Below are positions 1 through 59,608 of a stretch of DNA of 64,000 bases, piece by piece. Location: positions 174,481-238,480 of the forward strand of contig JBAZWC010000001.1 in NCBI GenBank assembly GCA_041660565.1. Direction: 5' to 3'. Each line of letters starts with the position of its first letter. Within the stretch, counting starts at the first letter, position 1. Source of the DNA: Patescibacteria group bacterium (GTDB lineage: Bacteria > Patescibacteriota > UBA1384 > CAJBMM01). Below the pieces are notes generated by a model. It was not told the origin of the DNA, searched no databases, and saw only the letters and a list, made by a program, of their open reading frames with translations. The translations under genes and the position numbers were made by a program.

Positions 1-5
1 GGGGA

Positions 6-1361
6 GTGATATTGGTTGATCCTCACGGTGAGGCGGTGGAGCATATTATGGCTAGCATTCCAGAGGAGCGTATTGATGATGTGGTGCTATTTGATCCTTC
101 AGACCGCGCGCATCCGATAGGCTTTAACCTATTAGAAGCGGTTGACGAAGACTTAAAGGGCATTGTGGCGTCCGGATTTGTTGGCATCTTTAAAAAGATT
201 TTCGGTAATTCATGGGGGCCGCGTTTGGAGCACATTTTGCGTAACTCGGTTTTGGCGCTGCTCGATTATCCGGAATCAACCATGCTTGGCATCGTAAAAA
301 TGCTAACCGACAAAAAGTATCGAGAAAAAGTAGTGGCCGAAGTAAAAGACCCTGTAATCAAAGATTTCTGGGAGAACGAATTTGCAGGATGGGATCAAAA
401 GTTTGCGTCCGAGGCAGCGTCTCCAATCCTAAACAAGGTAGGACAGTTTATTGCTACTTCGACAATCCGCAATATCGTTGGGCAGCCTAAATCTACCTTT
501 GACGTACGTAAGATTATGGATGAAGGTAAAATCCTATTGATCAATCTATCACGAGGTAAGATAGGTGAGGATAACTCGTCGCTGTTGGGAGCTATGATGA
601 TCACTAAGATTCAGCTAGCTGCAATGAGCCGAGCTGATGTACCCGAAGACCAGCGCACCGACTGTTATTTGTATGTGGATGAGTTTCAAAACTTTGCTAC
701 CGAATCTTTTGCCACTATTTTGTCCGAAGCGCGTAAGTATCACCTAGATTTAATAATGGCCAACCAGTATATCGCTCAAATGCAAGAAGAGGTAAGAGAT
801 GCGGTGTTTGGTAATGTTGGGACCATTATTGCGTTCAGAGTGGGGGCGTCTGACGCCAAAGATCTGGCCCAAGAGTTTACCCCGGCGTTTATAGAGACCG
901 ATTTGGTAAACCAAGACATTCATAAAATTTACATTAAGTTGTCAATTGATGGCATTACCGGTCAGGCATTTTCGGCTAACGCCTTGCCGCCATACCGCCC
1001 AACGCAGAGTTTTGCCGAGGAAATTGTTAAACGATCACGCGAAAAATATACCATTCCGCGCTCAGAAGCAGAGGGAGTAACAGACCACGAAGGAAATCCG
1101 GTGCCAACTAAAGAAGAAGTGGCGGAAAGCCGTCTGCTACACGAGGGTGCGATTGAGCTGCCTCCAATTAAAATTAAATCTGAAAATATTATTGACGGGT
1201 TGTACTACAAGCAGATGGACGCAAAAGGGGGAGTGACGTGGTGGGAAGGGTACTCGTTAGATGAGGTGATGTCTGAAGAAGAGAAGAAGCGCCAAAAGTT
1301 TCTAACCAAAAAGATAGAGAAGATAAAGTCAGCTACAACATTGTCCGACACAAAAGAATAG
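6..1361 (+). CDS. VirD4/TraG/TrwB-like type IV secretion coupling-protein ATPase, 5'-truncated at window edge
   Basis: Frame is open to position 1. Motif YLYVDEFQNF followed by RKYHLDLIMANQ resembles the coupling-protein Walker B and Q-rich segment. Confidence 0.5.
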   Translation: MILVDPHGEAVEHIMASIPEERIDDVVLFDPSDRAHPIGFNLLEAVDEDLKGIVASGFVGIFKKIFGNSWGPRLEHILRNSVLALLDYPESTMLGIVKMLTDKKYREKVVAEVKDPVIKDFWENEFAGWDQKFASEAASPILNKVGQFIATSTIRNIVGQPKSTFDVRKIMDEGKILLINLSRGKIGEDNSSLLGAMMITKIQLAAMSRADVPEDQRTDCYLYVDEFQNFATESFATILSEARKYHLDLIMANQYIAQMQEEVRDAVFGNVGTIIAFRVGASDAKDLAQEFTPAFIETDLVNQDIHKIYIKLSIDGITGQAFSANALPPYRPTQSFAEEIVKRSREKYTIPRSEAEGVTDHEGNPVPTKEEVAESRLLHEGAIELPPIKIKSENIIDGLYYKQMDAKGGVTWWEGYSLDEVMSEEEKKRQKFLTKKIEKIKSATTLSDTKE

Positions 1362-1375
1362 AATGTTCCTATATT

Positions 1376-1406
1376 TTCGAATTTAGTGCTTAGTGCTTCG
1401 AATTTC
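1376..1406. repeat. GTGCTTCGA / TTCGAAAT-type intergenic repeat, copy 1
   Basis: tcgaatttagtgcttagtgcttcgaattt. Related units occur at 19098-19142 and 56580-56700. Confidence 0.4.
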
Positions 1407-2077
1407 CATTCCCAGCAGGGGAATGGCTTGGGGGAGAGGGTGCAAATTTGAAATACCACTACGATTGGCTATCAAAGTCGGACGAATGTGACCAAAAGCC
1501 GGATTAGCGGATTAATAGAAAATGTCATAAAAATGACTAATAATTGTCATTTTGGTGAGCATAAATAACGACTGCAATTTAAGATCAATTTACGCTCGTT
1601 TAGAGTTTAGTACTCCCCTGGAGCATAATTTGTACAGGGAAGTGGTCTAATTTAAGCTCAAATGGCCCCTTAAAGCCCTACATTAGCTTATTATATGTAA
1701 GTGAACTATTTGATCATCTAAGGTATAAAATGAGCGTAAACTGGGGTCAGATATGCTATGAATGGTGAATCTTAGGGCGACGTATTGAGTATTTGTACGA
1801 GTAATAATGACGATCAATGACTGCCAGGCATGATCAAGCGTGCATAAGTGTCGCATAAGAATCATTGTACGACACAACGTGACTTGAAGCACGATGTACG
1901 AAATTATAAATTCAAAACAAAATCAAATTAAATAAGTTCGAAATTTTTTAAAAAAATCAATTTTCTTATTACGCCCCGCCCTATCTCTGGGTAGTCTTTG
2001 TATCCTATTTTAAAATTAAAAATTTATAATTTAAAATTTATTTTTACCTCTCCCCCGTTACCACTCCCCCACTCGTA

Positions 2078-2124
2078 TTTAAGATAAAGAAATTGCCGGC
2101 CAAGAGCATGCGCTCGAGGCCGGC
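2078..2124 (-). terminator. Hairpin plus T-rich tract ending the minus-strand small-peptide operon
   Basis: gccggcc-N16-ggccggc at 2095-2124. Followed on the minus strand by aatttctttatctt. Confidence 0.4.
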
Positions 2125-2131
2125 GAGAGGG

Positions 2132-2335
2132 CTAGTCTGGCATCGTCAGTTGCCGAACGATGAATCCTGCAGCAAAGACGATGATCAGCGACAAAACCAG
2201 TGTCAGATCACTGATGTAGTGACCGATCACCGCTCCCACGGTAAAGGCAACTAGTACTATCACGAACAGGGCGGTAGGAGACATCGCTAAGGCAATTCCC
2301 CCATCCCCCTGATCCTCGCCACGATCTTGGTCCAC
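2132..2335 (-). CDS. Small GC-rich transmembrane protein (67 aa)
   Basis: GTG start preceded by gggggaggtga SD. Hydrophobic helix-rich. Part of a GC-rich operon. Confidence 0.4.
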   Translation of the reverse strand: MDQDRGEDQGDGGIALAMSPTALFVIVLVAFTVGAVIGHYISDLTLVLSLIIVFAAGFIVRQLTMPD

Positions 2336-2379
2336 ACATCACCTCCCCCGTGATTAAATAGAACATCAGATTCGGTTCA

Positions 2380-2598
2380 TCACTTCGGCGTCGTATGCAC
2401 CGGATTGTCCTCATCGCGCGCCGTCATGCCGAGCCACCCGGCAACCGCCCCTACAACAAACAGTAACGTCGCCGGTCCGTACTTACTATGGCAAACGCAC
2501 ATGGCGCAGTTGATCCACGCCCCAACGCAGCCGATGCCAAACAACAGTCGCCAGTCACGAGCACGTATCGCGTCAACCTCACGCTTCAGTGGGTTCAT
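2380..2598 (-). CDS. Small GC-rich transmembrane protein (72 aa)
   Basis: ATG at 2598 preceded by gggaggtgat SD. TM segment LLFVVGAVAGWLGM. Confidence 0.45.
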   Translation of the reverse strand: MNPLKREVDAIRARDWRLLFGIGCVGAWINCAMCVCHSKYGPATLLFVVGAVAGWLGMTARDEDNPVHTTPK

Positions 2599-2599
2599 A

Positions 2600-2746
2600 T
2601 CACCTCCCTGTGATCGAGGTGAACAGTAGGAACGCGCCAGCGAGAAGGAATGCCGCTATGACGACGCAGATGGCGATCGTCGCCACGATCCATTTGGACA
2701 GGTCGCCAACGATTGCAAGGCCGGGGTCACTGCTCGAGCTTTGCAT
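2600..2746 (-). CDS. Small GC-rich transmembrane peptide (48 aa)
   Basis: ATG at 2746 preceded by gaaaggtga SD. Single TM helix IVATIAICVVIAAFLLAGAFLLF. The upstream part of the longer ORF has no SD. Confidence 0.4.
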   Translation of the reverse strand: MQSSSSDPGLAIVGDLSKWIVATIAICVVIAAFLLAGAFLLFTSITGR

Positions 2747-2931
2747 TGCGATCACCTTTCCACGTCCACATCGGTTCGTGGAGAACTGCTTGCTCCGGGT
2801 TAACCGGCACCCGGAATGGCGACTCCCCTGCCCGTACAATCGGGGCGGGGAGAAACATCACGATCATTACAGACATGACGCATAGCATCCGACAATCCCC
2901 TTTCGCACGTCAGGTTGTTGGACAATAGCTA

Positions 2932-2971
2932 TATTATACGCCAAAAGATGGACAATGTCCATCTTCGAAAG
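2932..2971 (-). promoter_or_regulatory. 40-bp direct-repeat unit 1 containing palindrome ATGGACAATGTCCAT plus an extended -10 on the minus strand
   Basis: tattatacgccaaaagatggacaatgtccatcttcgaaag. Minus strand reads ggcgTATAAT. 35/40 identical to the unit at 3920-3959. Confidence 0.5.
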
Positions 2972-3023
2972 AAAATCGGCGGTTACGCTTCTGCGCTCCG
3001 CCGACTTTATGGAATGAGGTGTG

Positions 3024-3836
3024 TCATGCTCCTGGATTCATGGTAACTACAACGAAGTCCCCTCTACTCGCGTTTGGAATGTCGTCCATCAATCGCGTAC
3101 TTCGATAGGCAGCTACGGACTTGACGTGAAATGACGAAAGCCCGACGCTAGAGGTGTAACTGGTGTCACGAGTCCCGTCGTCGCGGATTAAGCTAATTTT
3201 GCTGGTGATCTGCCCATCTACTATGCAAGCCACTACCCACGTGTCAGATGGATTGCGTTTTGGGTGTATGACGAAGTATATCTCACCCGCGACTTGGCCA
3301 GGGCTCATCGCACCGTTAATCGGCATCAACGGAGTACAACTCCCGTCCATCACATCTTGAGGTAAAAGCTCCCCAGCAGTCAAGCTCTCGCGGAAGCTTT
3401 TGTAAAACGCTGCAGTGCCGACGAATTTCCCGCCAACATCTGGTCCGACGTGATCTGACCGGGTATCAATGTGGTATCCGAGCTTGTCGTCGGTGCTATA
3501 ACTCAGTTCAGCCGGACTCCAACCACCCATGGTAGGGCCCTTAACCACTAGACCGTCGCCCGGTACGCCGAGCTTTATCTCCTGATCGGGCAATGATTCC
3601 CCGAGCAAGATGGGAAGCGTACGGTCTGGCTGATTTTGCACCGGTTCGGCCTGCTGGGGTTGGGCTACCTGAGTTGTTGGTTCGGCCTGAGACGGGGTTG
3701 GTGCTGTTGCCATGCTACTTGCCCCGCTGTACGAGCCTTCATTGCGTCGCACAACGGTAGTAATAATACCTAGCACTACAATGATCCCGACGACCACGCA
3801 GATCAGATTCACTGTGGTCTTCACTTCGTCTTGCAT
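3024..3836 (-). CDS. GC-rich membrane-anchored protein: N-terminal TM helix, Pro/Gln/Ala-rich linker, about 180-aa C-terminal domain of unknown function
   Basis: ATG at 3836 preceded by ggaggg SD. The listed ORF extends 11 codons further with no SD. TM segment LICVVVGIIVVLGIITTVV. Confidence 0.5.
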   Translation of the reverse strand: MQDEVKTTVNLICVVVGIIVVLGIITTVVRRNEGSYSGASSMATAPTPSQAEPTTQVAQPQQAEPVQNQPDRTLPILLGESLPDQEIKLGVPGDGLVVKGPTMGGWSPAELSYSTDDKLGYHIDTRSDHVGPDVGGKFVGTAAFYKSFRESLTAGELLPQDVMDGSCTPLMPINGAMSPGQVAGEIYFVIHPKRNPSDTWVVACIVDGQITSKISLIRDDGTRDTSYTSSVGLSSFHVKSVAAYRSTRLMDDIPNASRGDFVVVTMNPGA

Positions 3837-3919
3837 GGCTTGATCCCTCCATTGAGTTTGTGCGATCATCGGTCAAGCGACGTGTTAAAGTGCAACAGTA
3901 CGCCAGTGGTTGATGGATT

Positions 3920-3959
3920 TATTATACACAAAAAAATGGACAATGTCCTTCTTCGAAAT
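3920..3959 (-). promoter_or_regulatory. 40-bp direct-repeat unit 2 with palindrome ATGGACAATGTCC plus an extended -10 (tgtgTATAAT on the minus strand)
   Basis: tattatacacaaaaaaatggacaatgtccttcttcgaaat, upstream of the 3024-3836 gene. Confidence 0.5.
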
Positions 3960-3991
3960 TACAAATTTCGCGCTATCCCCTATTCGTATGG

Positions 3992-4651
3992 TTACTCAAG
4001 ATGAGTAAGATCGTTTAGGGTGATAATTTTCCAGCTACCGTCTGTTCTATTTTCTACAACGGTAATACCGGTATTGCCTAGTACAATTCCCATAGCAAAA
4101 CAACGATAAATATCTGTAGATAATATTTCTCCAAAGACCATCTCAGCTAGAAGAGTACGTAAGAAATTAGCGTGAGTAACTACAATAATTGTATCGTCTG
4201 ACATATCAGAAAGCTGATGGATAAATTTTTTAGCGCGGGTTCGGCTGTCAGCTAGATTTTCTTCATCGCTATGATGCCATGTCTCATCTTTAAAATTTTG
4301 CCAGCGCAGTTCGTCAAGCGCAATTACTTCTGGGTCATCATTTGATCTGCCTAAATATACACTCGGACTCTTTATTTCATGAATATCGTCGTGGATGTGT
4401 AATTCAGAAGTGATAGTTTTTTGTATAATCTCCGCGGTCTGTGAGGCGCGCGGGTAAGGGCTTGTTAGTATCCGATCCACTTGGATTAATTTTAGCCGGT
4501 TTGCCACTAGTTGTGCTTGCTCACGTCCTGTTTGAGTAAGTGATGCACTAGGGCCGAGTCGTATTTTCTGCTGGTTACTTTCTGATTCACCATGACGCAC
4601 AAAATACACTTTCATAAAAGTCCTTAGTGTTTTTGAGATCGGTTTTGCCAA
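3992..4651 (-). CDS. Histidine phosphatase superfamily protein (phosphoglycerate mutase-like)
   Basis: VRHGESESN motif (RHG catalytic His) and VVTHANFLR. Confidence 0.65.
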   Translation of the reverse strand: MAKPISKTLRTFMKVYFVRHGESESNQQKIRLGPSASLTQTGREQAQLVANRLKLIQVDRILTSPYPRASQTAEIIQKTITSELHIHDDIHEIKSPSVYLGRSNDDPEVIALDELRWQNFKDETWHHSDEENLADSRTRAKKFIHQLSDMSDDTIIVVTHANFLRTLLAEMVFGEILSTDIYRCFAMGIVLGNTGITVVENRTDGSWKIITLNDLTHLE

Positions 4652-5526
4652 ACTACCAACAATGGCGTGGCGTTAAAGATTGACGAATATGTTCCCACGG
4701 TAATACCAATTAGTAGTGCTAGTACAAATCCCTTTGTACTTTCGCCACCAAGCAAGAATAGCGCCAATAACACAATTAGCACGGTTAACGAGGTGTTTAA
4801 TGATCGAGCTAGGGTTTGAGAAATTGAAACGTTAGCAACATGCTCAAAGTTACCACCCGGAGTTAACCGCAAATTCTCTCTAATTCGATCAAATACCACA
4901 ATGGTATCGTGAACAGAGAAGCCCATAATGGTTAGCAAAGCGGTGACGGTTAGACTATCCAACTCAACAAAGTCATAATATCGTCCTAGAATTGCAAACA
5001 TTCCTATTACAAATATTAAATCATGAAGCAAAGCCACCACGGCACAGATGCCAAATCGCCAAGAGTTTGCCGGCTTTGGTACTTTACGAAACGCCCAGGC
5101 AATGTAAAGAATGATAGCCAACGAGGCGATAATCACCCGCCATACCGCTTTGTTGGTTTGATCTTTGCCGATAGTTGGTCCGACCGAGGTATAAGACTTC
5201 TCAACGGTGTCTGGAATTGATTTGTTGATGGCGTCGGTAATTTGAGAATGCTGTTCGTCTGATAGCGCGTCGGTCTTAAGGATAAACCCGTTGTTGCCGG
5301 TGGTGGTGACAGATAAATTCTTCAAGTCAATTTTTGATACCGCTTGCTTTACTGCGTCTGCCGTAACCGCAGATTTGGCGGTGTATTCGATGCTGGTGCC
5401 GCTTTTGAAATCAATTCCTACTTTTACGCCATATACCGACATAAAGATAATGCCGGGAATTATGAGCACAGCCGACAGGCCAAACCATAGCCATTTATAT
5501 TTCAGTACTTGAATAGTTTTAGACAT
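4624..5526 (-). CDS. secF: Protein translocase subunit SecF
   Basis: 300 aa, six-TM SecF architecture, immediately downstream of secD. Confidence 0.85.
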   Translation of the reverse strand: MSKTIQVLKYKWLWFGLSAVLIIPGIIFMSVYGVKVGIDFKSGTSIEYTAKSAVTADAVKQAVSKIDLKNLSVTTTGNNGFILKTDALSDEQHSQITDAINKSIPDTVEKSYTSVGPTIGKDQTNKAVWRVIIASLAIILYIAWAFRKVPKPANSWRFGICAVVALLHDLIFVIGMFAILGRYYDFVELDSLTVTALLTIMGFSVHDTIVVFDRIRENLRLTPGGNFEHVANVSISQTLARSLNTSLTVLIVLLALFLLGGESTKGFVLALLIGITVGTYSSIFNATPLLVVWQNRSQKH

Positions 5527-6793
5527 GGATTAACCTTTTGAAGCGTGATATGGCTAATAATTTTAAGATTACTTGGGTTATGGTGATGGCGGTGAACAAG
5601 CTGACCAATACGCCAATCGCCAGGGTTAGGGCAAATCCTCTAATTAGCCCGGCTGTTCCCACATACAACACCAATGCGGTGATCAAAGTGGAGCTGTTGC
5701 TGTCTCTAATGCTGGTCCAGGCGCGCTTAAAACCATCGTCAATTGCTTGTAGCAGCTCTTTACCCGATCGAATTTCTTCACGCATACGTTCAAATATCAG
5801 AATATTTGCATCCACCGCCATACCGATCGACAAAATAAATCCAGCTACACCCGAAAGCGTTACCGTAACCGGCAGTAGCTTATAGATGGCAATGTTGATG
5901 AGAGTGTAAATAACCAACGCAACAATGGCAATAACGCCCGGGGTTTTATAGTAAATGACCATAAATAACATAATTAATATCATTCCTATTAACCCGGCAA
6001 GCAAACTATCTTTAAGTGATTCGGCACCCAAGGTGGCACTGATGGTTTGTTGGTTGATGATTTTAATTGGCACCGGCAAAGCACCTTGGTTTAGCTGGTT
6101 TGTTAGTTCCTTGGCAGTTTGAACGGTAAAGCTGCCCGATATAATGGCCACGCCGTCGGTGATGGCGTCATTTACGGTTGGGGTGGAAATTACCTGATCG
6201 TCTAAAACTATCGCAATCGCCTCTTTAGGATTTGCTGCTGCGGCCTTGGTGGTTGCATCAGCGAATTTTTGCTTCCCAGCGTCTTTTAACTGTAGTCGTA
6301 CCTGTGGTTCGCCGGAGATGTTATTTGAACCGCTGGAAGTGCCAAAAGTAACGCTAGCACTATCTACATCCGAGCCGGTGATAACCGTGTTGCCTTGCTG
6401 ATCTAAAAATTTAAGGTCGGGAAATTGGCCAATCTGCTTGATGGCGCCGGCAACGTCGGTTACGCCTGGTAATTCCACAATCAGGGTGGTGTCGTTGCCA
6501 CTTTTGCCTACTTGAATAGTTGGCTCGGTGACGCCGAATTTGTTAATACGATCATTGACCCGAGATTTAAGTGTGGTTAACGCCGCATCTTGTTGACTGG
6601 CGGGGATTTTGGATAGATCGGCAAGATATGTAATCTCTACTCCACCGCGTAAATCTAAGCCCTGGTGAATAAATAATGATCGTTTAAAAGAACCTAAGCT
6701 AATGTCTGGCCCGCTGGGGAGTGCAATTACCAAAGCAAACGCCGTAATAACGGCGATAAACGCAAGCCTAATGTAGAGTTTTCTTTTAATCAT
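5519..6793 (-). CDS. secD: Protein translocase subunit SecD
   Basis: GLDLRGG motif, periplasmic domain plus C-terminal TM bundle. Confidence 0.85.
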   Translation of the reverse strand: MIKRKLYIRLAFIAVITAFALVIALPSGPDISLGSFKRSLFIHQGLDLRGGVEITYLADLSKIPASQQDAALTTLKSRVNDRINKFGVTEPTIQVGKSGNDTTLIVELPGVTDVAGAIKQIGQFPDLKFLDQQGNTVITGSDVDSASVTFGTSSGSNNISGEPQVRLQLKDAGKQKFADATTKAAAANPKEAIAIVLDDQVISTPTVNDAITDGVAIISGSFTVQTAKELTNQLNQGALPVPIKIINQQTISATLGAESLKDSLLAGLIGMILIMLFMVIYYKTPGVIAIVALVIYTLINIAIYKLLPVTVTLSGVAGFILSIGMAVDANILIFERMREEIRSGKELLQAIDDGFKRAWTSIRDSNSSTLITALVLYVGTAGLIRGFALTLAIGVLVSLFTAITITQVILKLLAISRFKRLIHV

Positions 6794-6845
6794 TTATGTC
6801 TGAATAATATCGTAAAATATGAGGTAAAGTCAATGCTTACATGGC

Positions 6846-6923
6846 TGTCATCCCGGACTCGATCCGGGATCCAGACTATAAACGATTATTTTACATAGAT
6901 TCCGGGTCAAGCCCGGAATGACA
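6846..6923. mobile_element. Miniature (empty) derivative of the GIY-YIG TIR element: two hairpin-containing terminal repeats separated by 15 bp
   Basis: tgtcatcccggactcgatccgggatccagactata plus aacgattattttaca plus tagattccgggtcaagcccggaatgaca. Matches the TIRs at 28603-29018 and 40750-41128. Confidence 0.55.
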
Positions 6924-20366: not shown

Positions 20367-20561
20367 TTAGTATCCTCTCTTGATCGCTTTGCGTTCCGCC
20401 TTGCGGATAGCCGACATACGGCGTTGACCGCGGCTAGGCTCTTCGGCAAAGTAACGTTTCTTTTTTACGATCGATAAAAGACCGCTTTGCTGGATATCGC
20501 GATTAAAGCGGCGTAGGAGCACATCAAATCTTTCGTGTTCTTTTTTACGAACTTCGGTCAT
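20367..20561 (-). CDS. rpsU: 30S ribosomal protein S21
   Basis: 64 aa, basic, MTEVRKKEHERFDVLLRRF resembles the S21 N-terminus. Confidence 0.8.
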   Translation of the reverse strand: MTEVRKKEHERFDVLLRRFNRDIQQSGLLSIVKKKRYFAEEPSRGQRRMSAIRKAERKAIKRGY

Positions 20562-20783
20562 GAATTAAAATTCACCTCACCTTCGAATTTATAATGTAAT
20601 AATAACAGATCCGCAGGACTATGTCCAGCGTATCAGATGATGGAGAATTGAGGATGGATGATGGATTATTTTCTTGTTCGAGGAGTGAAACGACGAGAAC
20701 TATCTTTGTTTCCATCCTCTATCCTCCACCCTCCGATATAAAAATGAGGCGCCCCGCGATTACTCGCGAGACGCCCAGTGCGA

Positions 20784-23495: not shown

Positions 23496-24146
23496 CTATT
23501 GATCTTGGGCAAGTTCTTCCACCATTCCGACATCGAATGTCGGGTTGGTATCCGCGTTGAACCAGACATAGAATCCGTAGCGGTCGAACCCTCCAACCGC
23601 AACGTGCTTATCCTTGGAAACCCCATGCCAACCCCAGTGATACCACTCGCCGAGTAGCCGCTCGTCATTGTGCACAATGCAGTTGGCGAAACAAACTGCT
23701 GTGACAACAGCTTCGTTTGCTCGCACAACACCCTTGGCGCAACGTTCAGGTTGATCTCCCCACCTATTCCTGGTGTGATTCCGGGCAAAGTTGAGCAAGT
23801 GATATCGCGGACTTCGCGATGAACATGCCCATTCATTCCCCGGCTTCAGCCACCATCTGTTTCGGTAGAAGTGTGGCTCTCGCTTTGCCCCATTAGTTCC
23901 GAAGAGCTGTCGCATGGCTGCAAGGGAAATGCCTGGATCGAACATCAACCGCCAATCCGCTTCGTTCTGCTGGTTTTGTCCGGCGCATTGCCGCAGTGTG
24001 TCAGCAGAGAAAAGAAGAAGGTCGATAGAACGCCCGAAATCCTCCTCCCCTAAAGCTTGCCGTGCTTGTTGCGCGGTTACAACCATTTCGCCACTAAGGA
24101 TCTCGATGGCCTCGTCGATATCAGTAACGTGAGTCATTCGCGTCAC
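23496..24146 (-). CDS. GC-rich hypothetical protein (216 aa), paralog of the 45943-46608 product
   Basis: aggggg SD. Shares ADTLRQC..DWRLM and NRWW..YHLLNF blocks with the other cassette protein. Confidence 0.5.
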   Translation of the reverse strand: MTRMTHVTDIDEAIEILSGEMVVTAQQARQALGEEDFGRSIDLLLFSADTLRQCAGQNQQNEADWRLMFDPGISLAAMRQLFGTNGAKREPHFYRNRWWLKPGNEWACSSRSPRYHLLNFARNHTRNRWGDQPERCAKGVVRANEAVVTAVCFANCIVHNDERLLGEWYHWGWHGVSKDKHVAVGGFDRYGFYVWFNADTNPTFDVGMVEELAQDQ

Positions 24147-30678: not shown

Positions 30679-30704
30679 TTTTAATTAAATAAAATTATGG
30701 TATA

Positions 30705-30860
30705 GTTTTGCCATCCTCGGCTAGTTTAGCCAACCGTTGCTGAAGCCGCGTTTTCGCGCGGTGGAAGAGTTGGCGCCTACCAGTTTCTGGTGGGTAGTGT
30801 CATGGCATCAACTGAGTTCAAGCATGCCGTTGAGTCTTGAATCCTAAGTAGTCGGGGGTG
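30705..30860 (+). ncRNA. Candidate structured non-coding RNA immediately upstream of the reverse transcriptase (possible retron msr/msd-type template RNA)
   Basis: GC-rich untranslated stretch after an extended -10 (tggtatagt). Hairpins ccgcg-ttttcg-cgcgg, ccag-ttt-ctgg and ggggcgag-N8-ctcgcccc. No ORF with SD. Confidence 0.3.
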
Positions 30861-31907
30861 ATCGAAGGGGCGAGGACGTTCTCTCGCCCCTTGTACCTTA
30901 CATCGAAAGGTGGTGATCTGGAGTTGAGCTATGGCTTACGACCAACCGAAGCGGCTGATTGGCTGATTCGCCGCTGTGAATTACCGCGGGAGTGGCGAGG
31001 TTACTTGGCCAGTGTAGTTGTTAAGCCGAGTAGCCAGTTTTACCACCAGTGGCAAATGCCGAAGAAAAACGGTGGATATCGGGTGATCCTGTCGCCGCTT
31101 GAACCACTGAAATCCGTTCAACGCCAGATTCTTCGCCACGTGCTGTGTGACCTAAGGATTTCGAGTGCGGCACACGGATTCGTAGGTGGTAGAGACATCA
31201 TTACTAATGCTCTACCCCATCTTCAGTCTCACTCCATGCTTGGTCTAGACTTGGCGGACGCATTTGGTAACGTCTGGCTTGGTTGGATGGCGTATCGTGA
31301 ATCGCCTAGGAAGACCACAGGACTAAAACTGGGTTTGCATCTGGACACTTGGCAGGCACTGTTGCCGTTTATCAGTTATGTGGACGATGATGACGGGATT
31401 CTGCCACAAGGCGCACCAACGTCGCCGGCGATTTTCAATGCAATGTGTTGTCGAATGGACACAATGCTGCTGAAACTTGCCAAAAACGTGGGCGGAGTGT
31501 ACACACGCTACGCCGACAACCTGACCTTTTCGATGCCAGGACCTTCAGTGGGGCAAAAGTTGATCAACGCAATCTTGCGTATTGTTGATGACGATGGTTT
31601 CCCACTGAATGATGACAAAACGCAACTACTACGCAGTGCCAACAACTTTAACCGGCCACTGCGCCTGCCAGGGCTGAACATCATTAATGGCCAACTAGTT
31701 CTGCCCGCCGACACACTAAAGCGCTTTCGTAGCGCTATGTACCGCGCTGGTCAGGACAGTTGCAGTGATGATGACGAAGTGCGCGATCATGCACGTCGAT
31801 CGCGTAGAGGCATCAAGGGATACGTCATTCGCATCTACGGCGAGTTGCCGCCACAACTACGTGGCATGTACGAAAAAGGACGCATACACGCGTCCGAAGA
31901 GACCTGA
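30858..31907 (+). CDS. Reverse transcriptase, retron-type (RT domain only, 349 aa), motif C reads YADN instead of YADD
   Basis: Motifs in order: KKNGGYRVI, ITNALPH (NAxxH), LGLDLADAFGNV, LPQGAPTSPAIFN, VYTRYADNLTF. GTG start. Alternative starts are possible. Confidence 0.75.
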   Translation: MIEGARTFSRPLYLTSKGGDLELSYGLRPTEAADWLIRRCELPREWRGYLASVVVKPSSQFYHQWQMPKKNGGYRVILSPLEPLKSVQRQILRHVLCDLRISSAAHGFVGGRDIITNALPHLQSHSMLGLDLADAFGNVWLGWMAYRESPRKTTGLKLGLHLDTWQALLPFISYVDDDDGILPQGAPTSPAIFNAMCCRMDTMLLKLAKNVGGVYTRYADNLTFSMPGPSVGQKLINAILRIVDDDGFPLNDDKTQLLRSANNFNRPLRLPGLNIINGQLVLPADTLKRFRSAMYRAGQDSCSDDDEVRDHARRSRRGIKGYVIRIYGELPPQLRGMYEKGRIHASEET

Positions 31908-31937
31908 TCCCCTACTGTCCGGACTGGGTGGTGGGGG

Positions 31938-37907: not shown

Positions 37908-38126
37908 ATTTTTCTCCTCTTATATATGTATTATATCGCATATTAGCGTTTAAAAAAGCGGGCGATTGTCATCGTCCACTAACAGAAGTATATCAAAAGT
38001 ATCGACTCTTGTCAAACACTATCAGTTAAAGATGATGATATCTATGGCAAATATTTGTAAATAGTGGTATAATCATAATGTTCAGCTTAGCTGAAAGTAC
38101 ACTTCACAGAAGGGGGAGCGAAAATC

Positions 38127-38663
38127 GTGGCGATTGATGTTGAGCTCAATCCGTTGCTTTCCGACCCGTGTTATCGCGGGCGCGCAATGCGAATGGCGCG
38201 TCGGATTACGGGTAATCCAGACGACGCTGAGGATGTTGCTCAATGCGTGATGCTCAGGGCGTGGCGGGCAAATCCGCAGAATCTAAGGAGTCCAGAAGCG
38301 TGGATGACGTGTATCACTCGTCGTGTGGCACTCGATCGTATTCGCGCCAACAACAATCGGCGCAAGTATCTAGGCATTGCGGTCAGCTTGGATGAGGTGT
38401 GGGAAGGTAACGACACCCTCGTACGCCAGTTAGCGGACTTCACTCAAGATCCGGCGCAGATAATCGAAGACCGCGTAATCGACGATCGCCTACACAATGC
38501 CTTATTGGTGGTGCCGCAGATGTTTCGCGCGCCATTCACTATGCACGTTGTCGGCGGAATGTCATACGACGACATCGCCCAAAAGCTGGGTATCCCGATT
38601 GGAACGGTCAAGTCTCGTATCAATCGGGCGCGGACGATCTTGCGCGGACAGCTCAGCGCTTAG
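38127..38663 (+). CDS. ECF-type sigma-70 family sigma factor, GC-rich cassette
   Basis: Region 2 DAEDVAQCVMLRAWR and region 4 MSYDDIAQKLGIPIGTVKSRINRAR. GTG start preceded by gaaggggga SD. Extended -10 tggtataat upstream. Confidence 0.7.
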   Translation: MAIDVELNPLLSDPCYRGRAMRMARRITGNPDDAEDVAQCVMLRAWRANPQNLRSPEAWMTCITRRVALDRIRANNNRRKYLGIAVSLDEVWEGNDTLVRQLADFTQDPAQIIEDRVIDDRLHNALLVVPQMFRAPFTMHVVGGMSYDDIAQKLGIPIGTVKSRINRARTILRGQLSA

Positions 38664-45342: not shown

Positions 45343-45427
45343 TGGTGGGCGAGGAGGGAGTTGAACCCACACACCTTACGGTACACGATTTTGAGTCGTG
45401 CGCGTCTGCCAGTTCCGCCACTCGCCC
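45343..45427 (-). tRNA. tRNA-Leu(CAA)
   Basis: Cloverleaf derived by hand: 7-bp acceptor GGGCGAG/CTCGCCC, anticodon stem CACGA/UCGUG with loop CUCAAAA, long variable arm, T-loop GGTTCAACTCC, encoded CCA. Confidence 0.85.
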
Positions 45428-45529: not shown

Positions 45530-45793
45530 TCAGCTCCGAATTCGGCATCGATACCTCTTGGTTCGATCGATCTCCGTTGACTTCACCAGGCCATGCATCT
45601 CCGCGCACGATTTGGCCTGAAGGAATACCGGAAGATCCTCGAACTCAACGACACGAAGATTCATGACCGGCATGCTGCCCCTGCAGTACATATCCTCTAC
45701 TTCAGGGCCGTAATCGACGATTTCCTGTGGAACTATCACTAGCTCAACGATAGCGCCCTCGGGAATCCAATTCCCGCAATCTGCGTATGGCAT
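45530..45793 (-). CDS. GC-rich hypothetical protein (87 aa), divergent partner of the 45943-46608 gene
   Basis: ATG preceded by a caaaggagaacgacc SD. GC-rich codons. Confidence 0.5.
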   Translation of the reverse strand: MPYADCGNWIPEGAIVELVIVPQEIVDYGPEVEDMYCRGSMPVMNLRVVEFEDLPVFLQAKSCAEMHGLVKSTEIDRTKRYRCRIRS

Positions 45794-45873
45794 GGTCGTT
45801 CTCCTTTGCGAACAAACGACAGAGTAGTGTTAGCGCAATAATATTCTACCACATTGCGCCGAATATGTACATA

Positions 45874-45902
45874 TTGACACATGGCAACGATATCAGTATA
45901 AT
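45874..45902 (+). promoter_or_regulatory. Exact sigma70 consensus promoter TTGACA-17-TATAAT
   Basis: ttgacacatggcaacgatatcagtataat, followed by a ggaggggg SD and ATG at 45943. Confidence 0.55.
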
Positions 45903-45942
45903 TGTGGGGATGGTTTCCAATCTCATTTCGACGGAGGGGGCG

Positions 45943-46608
45943 ATGGGAGTAACATGCGATCGGGTTGACGAGGAAGGTGCAATCGCAATCCTCGGCGAGG
46001 ATAACGTTGTACTTCCTCGAATGTGTGGGGTTTCTGCAGACGCTGTGGTGGATATCCCGTTTACGGCTGACGCACTGCGCCGGTGCCAACAGGATAACCT
46101 GGGAGGATTATCTGACTGGCGGTTGGTGTGTGTGAGAGGCTACTCACTGCTTGAGATGGTCAAGGTATTCCGGGTTAGCACGACGGGGCGCGACTGCTTC
46201 GAAGGCTCCGAGGGGTACGACTGGTGGTTTCGGAAGTCGTGGGCAACGCGGTTGGGAGAGCCGGGCTACCATCTGATCGATTTCACCCTGCGATTCGGTG
46301 GGATGTGCCTGGACTCTCGGTGCAAGCGTATTTCGGAAATGAGCGGTGTTCATGTACCTGACACCGCCGAGCTATCCGAAGCGATGCTGAGAGCGGCTCG
46401 CTGTTCAAACCCCAGGCAGCTACCTCACGACCGAGAGCATGGTGAGTTTCACGTCGGCAGCTTTACCGTGCCGTTTGGCCCGAGTAGCGCGTTCAGGCGG
46501 GTGTGGAGCGGACTCAACATTAACGCTCGGTACGTCGTTACGGAAGAGGTTGGCATGGGGGTGTTCACAAACGTCGGGGTATACCTGGCGAAGGACCGCA
46601 ACTGCTGA
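45943..46608 (+). CDS. GC-rich hypothetical protein (about 221 aa), paralog of the 23496-24146 product
   Basis: ATG at 45943 after a GGAGGGGG SD. The listed longer ORF starts inside the promoter. Shared blocks ADALRRCQQDN..DWRLV and DWWFRK..YHLIDF. Confidence 0.55.
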   Translation: MGVTCDRVDEEGAIAILGEDNVVLPRMCGVSADAVVDIPFTADALRRCQQDNLGGLSDWRLVCVRGYSLLEMVKVFRVSTTGRDCFEGSEGYDWWFRKSWATRLGEPGYHLIDFTLRFGGMCLDSRCKRISEMSGVHVPDTAELSEAMLRAARCSNPRQLPHDREHGEFHVGSFTVPFGPSSAFRRVWSGLNINARYVVTEEVGMGVFTNVGVYLAKDRNC

Positions 46609-53601: not shown

Positions 53602-53629
53602 TTGTAAAATTGCCGTTTTCTGGTATAAT
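53602..53629 (+). promoter_or_regulatory. Promoter TTGTAA-16-TATAAT with TGn extended -10
   Basis: ttgtaaaattgccgttttctggtataat, then a gggaggag SD. Confidence 0.45.
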
Positions 53630-53673: not shown

Positions 53674-54510
53674 ATGATGGAAACGGTTAGGCCGCATCGC
53701 GAAATCTGCGTCACCGGTACAAAAACGATCGATCAGCTTTTCAAGGTCGCCGCTGAGTTTGTAAAGGCTCGGGCGGTTCGCGCATGTGCTACATCGAGCT
53801 TGATCGATCAAAGACTCGTAATTGGCGTGTTAGCCAGCTCAAAGACATTGCGGGGTCTGGCAAACCACTGGCCAATGCGGTATCCACGATGCGACACACT
53901 GAAGAGGTTGTTTGCCCTGGGCTGTCATGCTGCTGAAATGCGGTTGCATCTGAACATCTCTGACACGGATCGGCTGGTAGAGGAAGTCGAGTTGGCACAT
54001 TGGATGTGCGGCGAAAGGCTGTCCGGTATCCAGCTGAATATGTGCTGGCCGCCGGAGTACTTGCTCACGGAGCTGCACCGGAGGCGGCCGGAAACGGATC
54101 TGCTGTTGCAGATTGGCGCGAACGCGTTACTCGAGTTCGAGGCGACGCATGGTGGCGCCATCCCGTTCTATGACGTTAAATGCATTGTTGCCCGTGTTGG
54201 GCAGTACGGCTCCAGCATTAATCGGGTATTGCTTGACCCGAGTGGTGGTTGCGGCGTCCCGATGAATGTGGACCGCCTGCGACCGGTTGTCGAGGGGTTG
54301 AACCACGCATTCCCCAACCTAGGCATCGGAGTTGCCGGTGGGCTGTGCGCCGAGACACTGCTGTCCATCGCGCCGCTGATCGAAGCCTGTCCAACGCTGA
54401 GCATCGATGCCGAGGGGCGTCTGCGCAATCCGGACACCGACGAGCTGGATATGGGCCGTGTCGAAGGCTATCTGACCGCAGCTTTCGACCTGTTCTACCC
54501 TCAAGCGTGA
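53674..54510 (+). CDS. GC-rich TIM-barrel protein resembling phosphoribosylanthranilate isomerase (TrpF-like)
   Basis: N-terminal REICVTGT resembles KICGIT. LLDPSGGCG and IGVAGGLCAETLLSI align with TrpF GGtG and lAGGLnpeNV blocks. The match was made by eye. Confidence 0.45.
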   Translation: MMETVRPHREICVTGTKTIDQLFKVAAEFVKARAVRACATSSLIDQRLVIGVLASSKTLRGLANHWPMRYPRCDTLKRLFALGCHAAEMRLHLNISDTDRLVEEVELAHWMCGERLSGIQLNMCWPPEYLLTELHRRRPETDLLLQIGANALLEFEATHGGAIPFYDVKCIVARVGQYGSSINRVLLDPSGGCGVPMNVDRLRPVVEGLNHAFPNLGIGVAGGLCAETLLSIAPLIEACPTLSIDAEGRLRNPDTDELDMGRVEGYLTAAFDLFYPQA

Positions 54511-54520
54511 TCAACACACT

Positions 54521-54556
54521 GCCGCCTTGCCCGGTTCGGGTAAGGCGGCTTAAATT
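54521..54556 (+). terminator. Rho-independent terminator
   Basis: gccgcctt-gcccggttcgggt-aaggcggc followed by ttaaatttat. Confidence 0.55.
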
Positions 54557-58718: not shown

Positions 58719-58747
58719 TAGACAAGAGTATAATAATCATATATAAT
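58719..58747 (+). promoter_or_regulatory. Promoter TAGACA-17-TATAAT
   Basis: tagacaagagtataataatcatatataat, then an agggag SD. Confidence 0.45.
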
Positions 58748-58787: not shown

Positions 58788-59564
58788 GTGCGACAATACA
58801 TCGAAGTGGTTGGGATTTCGTCCGTCGAAGAGGCGCACTGCGTTGTGGAGCATTATCACAACGCACGACCAATTGGTTCGGAGATTATTCTGAGGCTTGG
58901 AATAGTGGCAAAACCTAACTTGGTTGGTGTCCAGCGAGACGAGCAGATCACCCATGCCGTCTGCAACCAGTGCTTGTGTTGGTCCGATGTTGACGTGTGC
59001 ATGCACTGGTACGATCAAACCGGGGCGCCTACCGACCTGATGGCAGTCGTTACCGGTACGTACGCGGTTGCAGGGTTCAACCTCAGTCATTTGCAACTCG
59101 ACATACCTGAACTTCCTGACCCGGGTTTGCTAGGTACTGCGGTTCACGCGACGCGCAGCAATGGCTTACGGGTGGTGCTGTCACTTGGCTGTAATCAGCT
59201 GTTAGACAATGGGTACGACAGCGATGAGCCCGACTACGGCCCGTTGATAGAACGTCTGTCTGAATATGCGACCGATGGTTATGTTGACCAGCTAGTGATA
59301 AAGCCCGGGTGGCTCGGAAACAAAGTAAACCTACGTTTACTGATACAGGCTGTTCGGGAGCTATATCCACGGTGGGGTGTCACCATATTCGACGGGCTTG
59401 TATTACCGACCGCGATAGGTGAGGTCAGAGAGCTTGCCATGGAGTTCGGCGGTGTCTCTGTCTCCGCGCACCATCAGCTGTTTGCCTGTCCGGGAGGCCC
59501 GGAGCTGTCAGAAACGCGGGTATTGTGCTTTATCCAGGAGGGGTTGCGTGTTCTGGGCACCTAG
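58788..59564 (+). CDS. GC-rich TrpF-like TIM-barrel paralog (258 aa), related to the 53674-54510 product
   Basis: IEVVGISSVEEAH N-terminus. KPGWLGNKVN and FDGLVLPTAIGEV align with the PSGGCG and VAGGLCAE blocks of the other cassette protein. Confidence 0.45.
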   Translation: MRQYIEVVGISSVEEAHCVVEHYHNARPIGSEIILRLGIVAKPNLVGVQRDEQITHAVCNQCLCWSDVDVCMHWYDQTGAPTDLMAVVTGTYAVAGFNLSHLQLDIPELPDPGLLGTAVHATRSNGLRVVLSLGCNQLLDNGYDSDEPDYGPLIERLSEYATDGYVDQLVIKPGWLGNKVNLRLLIQAVRELYPRWGVTIFDGLVLPTAIGEVRELAMEFGGVSVSAHHQLFACPGGPELSETRVLCFIQEGLRVLGT

Positions 59565-59579
59565 TCGTTACGTCCAATT

Positions 59580-59608
59580 CGCCGCGAGGATTCTACTCGC
59601 GGCGTTTT
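59580..59608 (+). terminator. Rho-independent terminator
   Basis: cgccgcgag-gattcta-ctcgcggcg 9-bp stem followed by tttt. Confidence 0.6.

Follow-up and report, generated by a model that had tools for sequence, protein, structure and literature searches.

We analysed a 64,000-nt stretch of a metagenome-assembled Patescibacteria group genome (hereafter the window, taken from a 516,109-bp contig) and focus here on island A, a GC-rich block of 1.9 kb at ~2079–3975 whose genes all lie on the minus strand. We read this block as the present genome's occupant of a hypervariable slot for accessory genes, located between secD-secF (together with a histidine-phosphatase gene) and the conserved gene of a TraG/VirD4-like ATPase in one family of Patescibacteria, and as likely to have been acquired horizontally, a reading to which we give a probability of roughly 0.55. 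It is predicted to encode a protein that crosses the membrane once and has a domain of ~190 amino acids (aa), together with three or four very short peptides, each with one or two membrane segments. In Patescibacteria, whose genomes are tiny and which live attached to other cells, the envelope proteins that are thought to mediate this lifestyle are mostly uncharacterised. The locus could serve as a clean, small example of membrane-protein gain in such organisms, combining a fixed slot, ready-made expression signals, quick content turnover and a testable operator candidate.

A hypervariable slot between secF and a TraG/VirD4-like ATPase gene

Synteny was taken from SecF homologs and the contigs that carry them. 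At eight related loci, which represent about six distinct lineages and have SecF proteins 68–79% identical to the one here, the flanking genes are kept, whereas the content between them differs; SecF of Berkelbacteria is ~58% identical, and a SecF scan of genomes in GTDB returned no close relative. The conserved order runs from a UvrD-like helicase through polysaccharide deacetylase, GT4, PIG-L, VTT, RluD, Gmk, RHH, SecD and SecF to the gap, and then to the convergent gene of the TraG/VirD4-like ATPase (DUF8128), beyond which follow a sigma70_r4/HARE-HTH gene and a second, TrwB-like ATPase gene, an order that the window also shows. Among the relatives the gap measures 0.9–4 kb, and what it holds depends on the lineage: one membrane peptide of 68–74 aa in ~1 kb (L002–L006), three tiny single-pass peptides of 49, 37 and 32 aa in 0.9 kb (L007 and L012), two open reading frames (ORFs) for coiled-coil proteins (L008), two ORFs of 211 and 139 aa (L014), or six ORFs in 4 kb (L009/L010, with membrane proteins of 43 and 144 aa in L009). 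None of these gap contents matched Pfam, none included a histidine phosphatase or any island A gene, and island A itself was absent from the syntenic position in all related genomes examined. Since the relatives keep the flanks while the gap content is lineage-specific, island A sits in a hypervariable slot. Outside the slot, our DNA and protein searches found no identifiable donor or homologous copy of the island, save one homolog of its largest gene (gene D, below) on a contig of 1.1 kb.

Compositionally, the islet of L012/L007 also departs from its surroundings, with a GC content of 0.53–0.58 versus 0.39 and a GC content at third codon positions (GC3) of 0.58–0.71 versus 0.36 in secF, and its three peptide genes lie in the orientation of secF with strong Shine-Dalgarno sites, an ATGA start/stop overlap and a terminator. 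It resembles island A in position and orientation relative to secF, in GC excess, strong ribosome-binding sites, overlapping start and stop codons, terminator and bracketing motifs, but differs in the number and topology of its peptides and in having neither a D-like gene nor a palindromic promoter repeat; we detected no sequence similarity between its peptides and those of the small-peptide operon of island A (C0-C-B-A). The slot repeatedly holds GC-rich operons of predicted small membrane peptides, a recurrence overlooked by an earlier note that had been drawn from the letters of the window (the original prediction).

Both neighbours of the island have peculiarities of their own. The histidine-phosphatase gene (3992–4651; PF00300, E 3e-32) resembles the host genes in composition and shares 28 nt with the end of secF. 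None of the relatives examined has it at this position, and so it is a second such addition to the slot, older and likewise specific to this lineage. The TraG/VirD4-like ATPase (window 6–1361; L011, 5558–8230) has 890 aa versus 1049–1140 aa in the relatives, and is without their low-complexity C-terminal tail of ~200 aa. The non-coding stretch of ~700 bp that follows its gene (1362–2078) contains elements kept in relatives (L002, 11590–11930; L012, 7480–7780), namely a hairpin, GTGTCGCATAAGAATCATTGTACGACAC, at 1848–1876, CCCCGCCCTATCT at ~1974–1986 and CCACTCCCCCACT at 2060–2072, without a match in Rfam.

A GC-rich block of foreign composition

Counted over 300 nt at a time, the GC content is 0.52–0.60 across 2100–3900 and 0.33–0.45 on both flanks, with ~42% elsewhere, and GC3 is 0.56–0.73 in the island genes versus 0.31–0.47 in 15 host genes (0.31 in the adjacent histidine-phosphatase gene). 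These counts bear out the original prediction, which had described a GC-rich block on an AT-rich background, and the composition of the island is foreign to the host genome. The Logan assembly of run SRR18595301, an independent assembly, is 100% identical to window 1–6918 and crosses both junctions; because the two assemblies agree base for base over both junctions, the block is no artefact of binning or of assembling a metagenome-assembled genome. In the NCBI annotation, locus tags WC773_00830 to WC773_00840 fall in the island.

Structurally, the island is predicted to comprise two autonomous units, each made up of a near-consensus sigma-70 promoter, one or more genes whose ribosome-binding sites are strong, and a hairpin terminator. 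In the predicted order, unit 1 runs from promoter P_D through gene D to its terminator, and unit 2 from promoter P_small through C0 (an unannotated candidate gene), C, B and A to a second terminator. Both putative terminators, which the earlier note had overlooked, lie on the minus strand: that of the small-peptide operon (2095–2125) is a GCCGGCC...GGCCGGC hairpin with a U-rich tail (free energy, ∆G, of −23.9 kcal/mol, z −3.6, 0/200 shuffles as good), and that of gene D (2978–3008; ∆G −22.7 kcal/mol, z −4.25, 0/200 shuffles as good) has a U-tail that enters the first copy of the promoter repeat described below. Rfam gave no match in or near the island.

Predicted membrane proteins of the island

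Gene D (3024–3836, minus strand; WC773_00840) encodes a membrane-anchored protein of 270 aa, with an N-terminal tail of 8 residues, a membrane helix at ~9–32, an Ala/Pro/Gln/Thr-rich linker at ~34–75 and then the ~190-aa domain. Hydropathy places the membrane segment at residues 3–32 and AlphaFold2 builds residues 2–33 as a confident helix, in agreement with each other and with the original prediction of a transmembrane helix, a Pro/Gln linker and a C-terminal domain. Modelling suggests that this C-terminal domain is beta-rich, without a match to a known family; the models are poor (predicted local distance difference test score, pLDDT, of 38.5 from a single sequence and 43.6 from two), and Foldseek searches with them against PDB and BFVD returned best E values of 0.16–0.46 with template-modelling (TM) scores <0.2, which are meaningless. 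A sequence-profile search of PDB found no match, and the leader of D has no significant structure.

In databases, D is almost alone. A word-indexed search of 5.8 billion proteins matched D to itself only, an exhaustive HMMER search over 1.84 billion cluster representatives retrieved D plus one more protein, P0007 (E 3.6e-4), and a profile built from the two found no further members, which leaves one distant homolog among ~15 billion proteins. Aligned pairwise, D and P0007 share 23% identity over 235 residues with an E value of 3e-10 (a range of 23–26%), and P0007 has the same layout as D, with an N-terminal membrane helix, a Pro/Ala/Thr/Gln-rich linker, a C-terminal domain of ~190 aa and common LGYH and TW..C motifs. 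The contig of P0007 (L001; 1,113 bp, ~55% GC) is itself a promoter-gene-terminator unit, with a TGgTATAAT promoter element at 33–41 and a terminator of the hairpin type. The ends of this contig form a perfect 13-nt inverted repeat (1–13, CATGTTCTATGTT; 1099–1111, AACATAGAACATG), and a literature search on the run accession of P0007 found nothing.

All the remaining products are small, with hydrophobic stretches. Gene A (2132–2335, minus strand; WC773_00830) has a GTG start and encodes 67 aa, with an acidic N-terminus followed by two hydrophobic segments. Gene B (2380–2598, minus strand; WC773_00835) encodes 72 aa, with membrane segments at residues 17–37 and 42–60, a basic N-terminus and a charged C-terminus (RDEDNPVHTTPK); it starts 1 nt past the stop codon of C, and its Shine-Dalgarno site lies within the end of C. 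Gene C (2600–2746, minus strand; called by JGI only) encodes 48 aa with one long membrane segment, so that the three hydrophobic peptides of the original prediction are upheld by the ORF list and by hydropathy, which finds one or two membrane segments in each of A, B, C and D. The earlier claim of a Shine-Dalgarno site for every small peptide stood for A (GGGGGAGGTGA) and B (GGGAGGTGA), where the sites are strong, and less well for C, where the site is weaker (GGAAAGGTGA); D has GGAGGG. A fourth small ORF, C0 (2727–2888, minus strand), is a candidate that the earlier note overlooked: it would encode 53 aa with a hydrophobic N-terminus, overlaps C by 20 nt, and has an AAGGGG Shine-Dalgarno site ~8 nt upstream of a start that lies ~36 nt past the predicted transcription start. 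If C0 were untranslated, a leader of ~180 nt without significant structure (z −1.4) would stand in its place.

A coding model that used codon statistics trained on the genes of other GC-rich islets, with island A left out, gave all five ORFs (A, B, C, C0 and D) positive log-odds in their own frame and lower values in the other five, including +0.22 for A and +0.10 for C0, for each of which all five other frames were negative. In the protein collection searched, A, B and C are singletons by cluster look-up, and the exact sequence of C0 is absent; a scan of JGI metagenome contigs found no match to B. Searches of Pfam, PHROGs, NCBIfam and PADLOC with all five products and with P0007 yielded nothing above threshold, only noise that stemmed from hydrophobic segments.

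A duplicated promoter and a putative operator

Upstream of each unit lies one copy of a direct repeat of 46 nt, with 85% identity between the copies, read on the minus strand. Copy 1 (2925–2970) contains P_small (2933–2961; TGGACA-17-TATAAT, 11/12) and a 21-nt palindrome (2945–2965), and copy 2 (3913–3958) contains P_D (3921–3949; AGGACA-17-TATAAT, 10/12) and a degenerate form of the palindrome. The similarity spans ~46–50 nt, from an upstream TTTCGAAG through the palindrome with the −35 hexamer, the spacer and the −10 hexamer, and stops before the leaders; the 29-nt core pattern of the repeat occurs at these two sites only in the window (0 expected), and P_small and P_D are the two best promoter-like sites of the region. 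The near-identical upstream repeats of the original prediction are thus real, at 46 nt and 85% rather than the 40 bp proposed, but its extended −10 element (TGn) is absent from both promoters, where the bases ahead of TATAAT are GCG and GTG.

The palindrome in copy 1 is perfect, with two 10-nt arms around a single base (AAGATGGACAATGTCCATCTT), and contains the −35 hexamer of P_small. Copy 2 retains only the core GGACAATGTCC (3938–3948), so the palindrome that the earlier note had placed in both repeats is perfect in one of them, where it is also longer than stated. An extra half-site, TGGACAAT, lies at 2919–2926, at the predicted transcription start of P_small and 30 nt from the palindrome half-site at 2949; such a third half-site had been claimed before, although the ttggacaat in question begins one base later. 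The window holds four copies of TGGACAAT, three of them inside the island promoters, and three copies of GGACNNNGTCC (0.28 expected), each 17 nt from a −10 hexamer and two of them in the island promoters. The third GGACNNNGTCC belongs to the promoter of rpsU (ribosomal protein S21, 20367–20561), which reads TGGACAtaGTCC-17-TATTAT (20599–20627, minus strand) and comes directly after the terminator (20776–20747) of a neighbouring GC-rich islet. Searches for the operator pattern in collections of metagenome and genome contigs, the source genome not being among them, gave 0 matches.

A 21-nt dyad over the −35 hexamer, together with a half-site on the same face at +1, is an arrangement classically seen at repressor operators, and with no regulator in the island it is from symmetry and position that we infer this role. 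Since a duplicated promoter, with the palindrome at −35, stands ahead of both units, co-regulation of the cassette, put forward in the original prediction, is a reasonable expectation. The 988-bp segment that the repeat bounds (gene D, its terminator and one promoter copy) fits the idea that D may have been added together with a promoter copy.

Boundary motifs

Two related G-rich motifs on the minus strand bracket the island, as they bracket variable cargo in several lineages. Motif 1, on the secF side (3971–3989, ATACGAATAGGGGATAGCG), lies 2 nt past the stop codon of the histidine-phosphatase gene and includes the right copy (3976–3989, TCCCCTATTCGTAT) of an imperfect 14-nt flanking direct repeat (12/14), the left copy of which (2065–2078, TCCCCCACTCGTAT on the plus strand) is part of motif 2 on the TraG side (2060–2078, ATACGAGTGGGGGAGTGG). 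In the form AATAG(TG/TA)GGGGATAGCG, motif 1 follows the secF stop codon in L012/L007 and the histidine-phosphatase stop codon here, and in the form A(A/G)GTGGGGGAGTG, motif 2 is found on the TraG side in L002–L006, L007, L012 and L009 as well as here. The flanking repeat has these two matches only in the window, versus 0.14 expected, and shuffled boundary segments reached 12/14 in 2/500 to 52/2000 cases, depending on segment size (p ~0.004–0.026). Six other GC-rich islets of the window have no significant flanking repeat, so that it is no general islet feature.

Proposed origin and alternative explanations

Evolutionarily, we posit that the block stems from a pool of donors with ~55% GC and arrived either by horizontal acquisition or by recombination that exchanged it into place at the bracketing motifs or close to them, and that D and one promoter copy could have been added beside the small-peptide operon, which would have duplicated the promoter. 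The palindrome, including the −35 hexamer, and the half-site at the transcription start would form an operator for a dimeric repressor whose gene lies outside the island, through which both units would be switched together by co-repression. Functionally, the products would reside in the cell membrane as a rapidly evolving set of envelope accessories. Rather than housekeeping, their most likely roles would be to exclude phage or foreign DNA or to defend against either, or else to interact with the host cell.

Several observations weigh against this scenario. The window's only tRNA lies at 45343, and no integrase, transposase or tRNA is present at the island borders; the flanking repeat is short and part of conserved locus motifs, and so may be regulatory rather than recombinational. 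On the regulatory side, the island encodes no DNA-binding regulator, copy 2 of the palindrome has lost its outer arms, and the palindrome is absent from the promoter of P0007, the only D homolog. The topology of D is ambiguous, with the positive-inside rule giving opposite answers for D and P0007. Homologs of the small peptides were sought by exact-cluster look-up, family libraries, tblastn against phages and pattern scans, and not by an exhaustive profile search. Lastly, fast divergence in place under a GC-favouring process is an alternative to repeated acquisition, and it stands because the relatives also have GC-rich small-peptide genes at the locus.

On the regulatory point the main rival is a plain duplication of a promoter, in which the palindrome would be an accidental or structural feature around a TGGACA −35 hexamer and both units would be constitutive. 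This is possible, if not what we favour: besides the missing regulator, the operator-free promoter of the homolog and the eroded copy 2, whose −35 hexamer is weakened to AGGACA, the host's own rpsU promoter suggests that promoters of this genome may more generally have a GGAC-N3-GTCC context at −35. Against it, a perfect 10-1-10 palindrome of 21 nt whose centre lies just beyond the −35 hexamer would very rarely arise by chance, the third half-site falls exactly at the transcription start, 30 nt away, and GGACNNNGTCC is enriched and always 17 nt from a −10 hexamer.

A bolder version of our reading, which we consider unlikely, would make the slot a dedicated cassette-exchange site. Here the G-rich motifs (core AGTGGGGGA) would act as recombination or att-like sites, with unrelated GC-rich promoter-gene-terminator cassettes exchanged between them, typically ones in which an operon encodes tiny membrane peptides. 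The ten or so similar autonomous units spread over the 64 kb would then reflect an unrecognised, integrase-less route by which ultra-small symbiotic bacteria gain and express foreign membrane-protein genes, and D with P0007 would found a new family of membrane-anchored proteins. If true, such a site would be a marker for strain-level variation and a handle on phage exclusion or host recognition in genetically intractable organisms.

The original prediction had named a holin-like or lysis module among its possible functions, and a remnant phage module for lysis or superinfection exclusion (a moron), with the two-segment peptides acting as holin and antiholin and D as an exclusion protein or wall-acting enzyme, would account for part of what we see. 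Peptide B, with 72 aa, two membrane segments, a basic N-terminus and a charged C-terminus, is sized and laid out like the class II holins, the units have a promoter and terminator of their own and atypical GC in the manner of morons, and the membrane region of D has a weak, non-significant match to a Sie-like family in PHROGs (E 0.2). However, there are no endolysin, phage structural or integrase genes nearby, the flanks are conserved chromosomal genes in conserved synteny, and four small peptides behind a strong promoter would be atypical for a lysis cassette. No match was found to A or B by tblastn against 50,697 phage genomes, in plasmid collections or in IMG/VR contigs, to D or the island DNA by BLAST against the same number of phage genomes or against plasmids, to D in an IMG/VR scan, or to any product at significance in PHROGs; profile searches with Pfam, NCBIfam and PDB found no hydrolase domain in D or its neighbours. 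The lysis claim is not supported by these results, and we regard a phage module of any kind as quite unlikely.

Proximity invites the idea that the island supplies accessory membrane parts (pilin-, VirB3- or VirB8-like) of the neighbouring TraG/VirD4-like apparatus for secretion or DNA transfer. The island lies ~700 bp from the 3' end of the TraG-like ATPase gene (PF02534, PF12696), which is in a conserved cluster with the second, TrwB-like ATPase, and small membrane proteins recur at the slot in relatives. But no product matched a type IV secretion family in Pfam or NCBIfam, the island genes converge on the ATPase gene and are not co-transcribed with it, their GC content differs, and the slot contents vary while the ATPase cluster is conserved, which together make this explanation highly improbable.

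That the block is unreal, a set of spurious ORFs within a chimeric or contaminant insert, might be suspected from the fact that every product is an orphan and that one source sample alone is represented; the suspicion has very little left to it, given two assemblies that are base-identical across both junctions, five ORFs that score as coding in their own frame only and come with ribosome-binding sites, coupling, promoters and terminators, and a distant homolog of D with the same architecture.

The final proposal, which in its anti-sigma form also came from the original prediction, cast the island as an anti-sigma or membrane-stress partner of the orphan extracytoplasmic function (ECF) sigma factor at 38127–38663 (PF04542 and PF08281), a gene that is likewise GC-rich and has no adjacent anti-sigma gene; it is hardly credible and was dropped, since D has ~8 residues ahead of its membrane helix and so no cytoplasmic sigma-binding domain, the peptides, with 17 such residues or fewer, have no room for one either, the sigma gene is 34 kb away, the island promoters are of the sigma-70 rather than the ECF type, and no anti-sigma family in Pfam or NCBIfam was matched. 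The sigma gene itself (Sigma70_r2 and r4_2) lies between nusA and a gene of the WecG glycosyltransferase family, with a TGgTATAAT extended −10 element at ~38066–38074.

Other GC-rich islets in the window

The window as a whole is a mosaic, in which about ten GC-rich islets (0.51–0.56 GC versus 0.42), one of them with the solo ECF sigma gene, make up ~20% of the sequence, between 16468 and 59595. They lie at ~16.5–17.5k, 20.7–22.0k, 23.4–24.1k, 30.8–32.1k, 33.5–34.0k, 38.1–39.2k, 45.5–46.7k, 47.7–49.0k, 53.7–54.6k and 58.8–59.6k, and most are single autonomous units of a near-consensus sigma-70 promoter, an ORF without a Pfam match and a strong hairpin terminator, as in the successions of promoter 53602–53629, ORF 53674–54510 and terminator 54521–54549, and of promoter 58719–58747, ORF 58788–59564 and terminator 59580–59604. 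The islet at 30700–31937 encodes a reverse transcriptase (RVT_1, E 3e-18; gene 30858–31907, terminator 31909–31937) whose upstream ~150 nt are GC-rich and hairpin-prone, giving it a retron-like look, with no match in Rfam. Two orphan proteins of separate islets, 23496–24146 (minus strand) and 45787–46608 (plus strand), are paralogs, with 30% identity over 143 aa (E 3e-10), and the islet of the latter adjoins the window's only tRNA gene, tRNA-Leu (45343–45427).

Comparison with known systems

Three features of island A seem worth following: the small-peptide design that recurs at a slot bracketed by motifs, the clean operator candidate, and the near-unique D/P0007 family. Set beside known systems, the array-like units of the island, separated by a repeated element with an imperfect palindrome, recall integron cassettes; but the repeat is a promoter 5' of each unit and not an attC site, and there is no integrase, attI or R'/R'' core site. 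With class II holins and lysis cassettes it shares peptides of ~70 aa with two membrane segments (A and B) and, in B, a charged C-terminus, but it has no endolysin, phage context or family match, and encodes four peptides rather than a holin/antiholin pair.

Phage morons, reportedly a concept of Hendrix and colleagues for autonomous promoter-gene-terminator insertions of atypical composition, come closer in construction. As in morons, a near-consensus promoter and a hairpin terminator come with each unit, the GC content is unlike that of the flanks, the products are small membrane or accessory proteins, and the genes on either side are next to each other, or almost so, in relatives. Unlike morons, the island lies in a conserved chromosomal neighbourhood with no prophage, and has neither phage genes nor similarity to phage databases.

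Genomic islands are documented in Patescibacteria, where up to 13% of genome length is ascribed to horizontal transfer (PMC12455944). Compared with genomic islets and hotspots in general, island A is only 1.9 kb long and is without integrase, tRNA or mobility genes, and its bracketing repeats are conserved locus motifs that also occur in genomes with other cargo. What it has in common with them is its atypical composition, its lineage-specific orphan content and its fixed slot between core genes, and the short flanking direct repeat may be a further parallel. The island is an orphan islet, probably acquired horizontally, at a slot that behaves like a recombination hotspot, and is of a kind already documented in this phylum.

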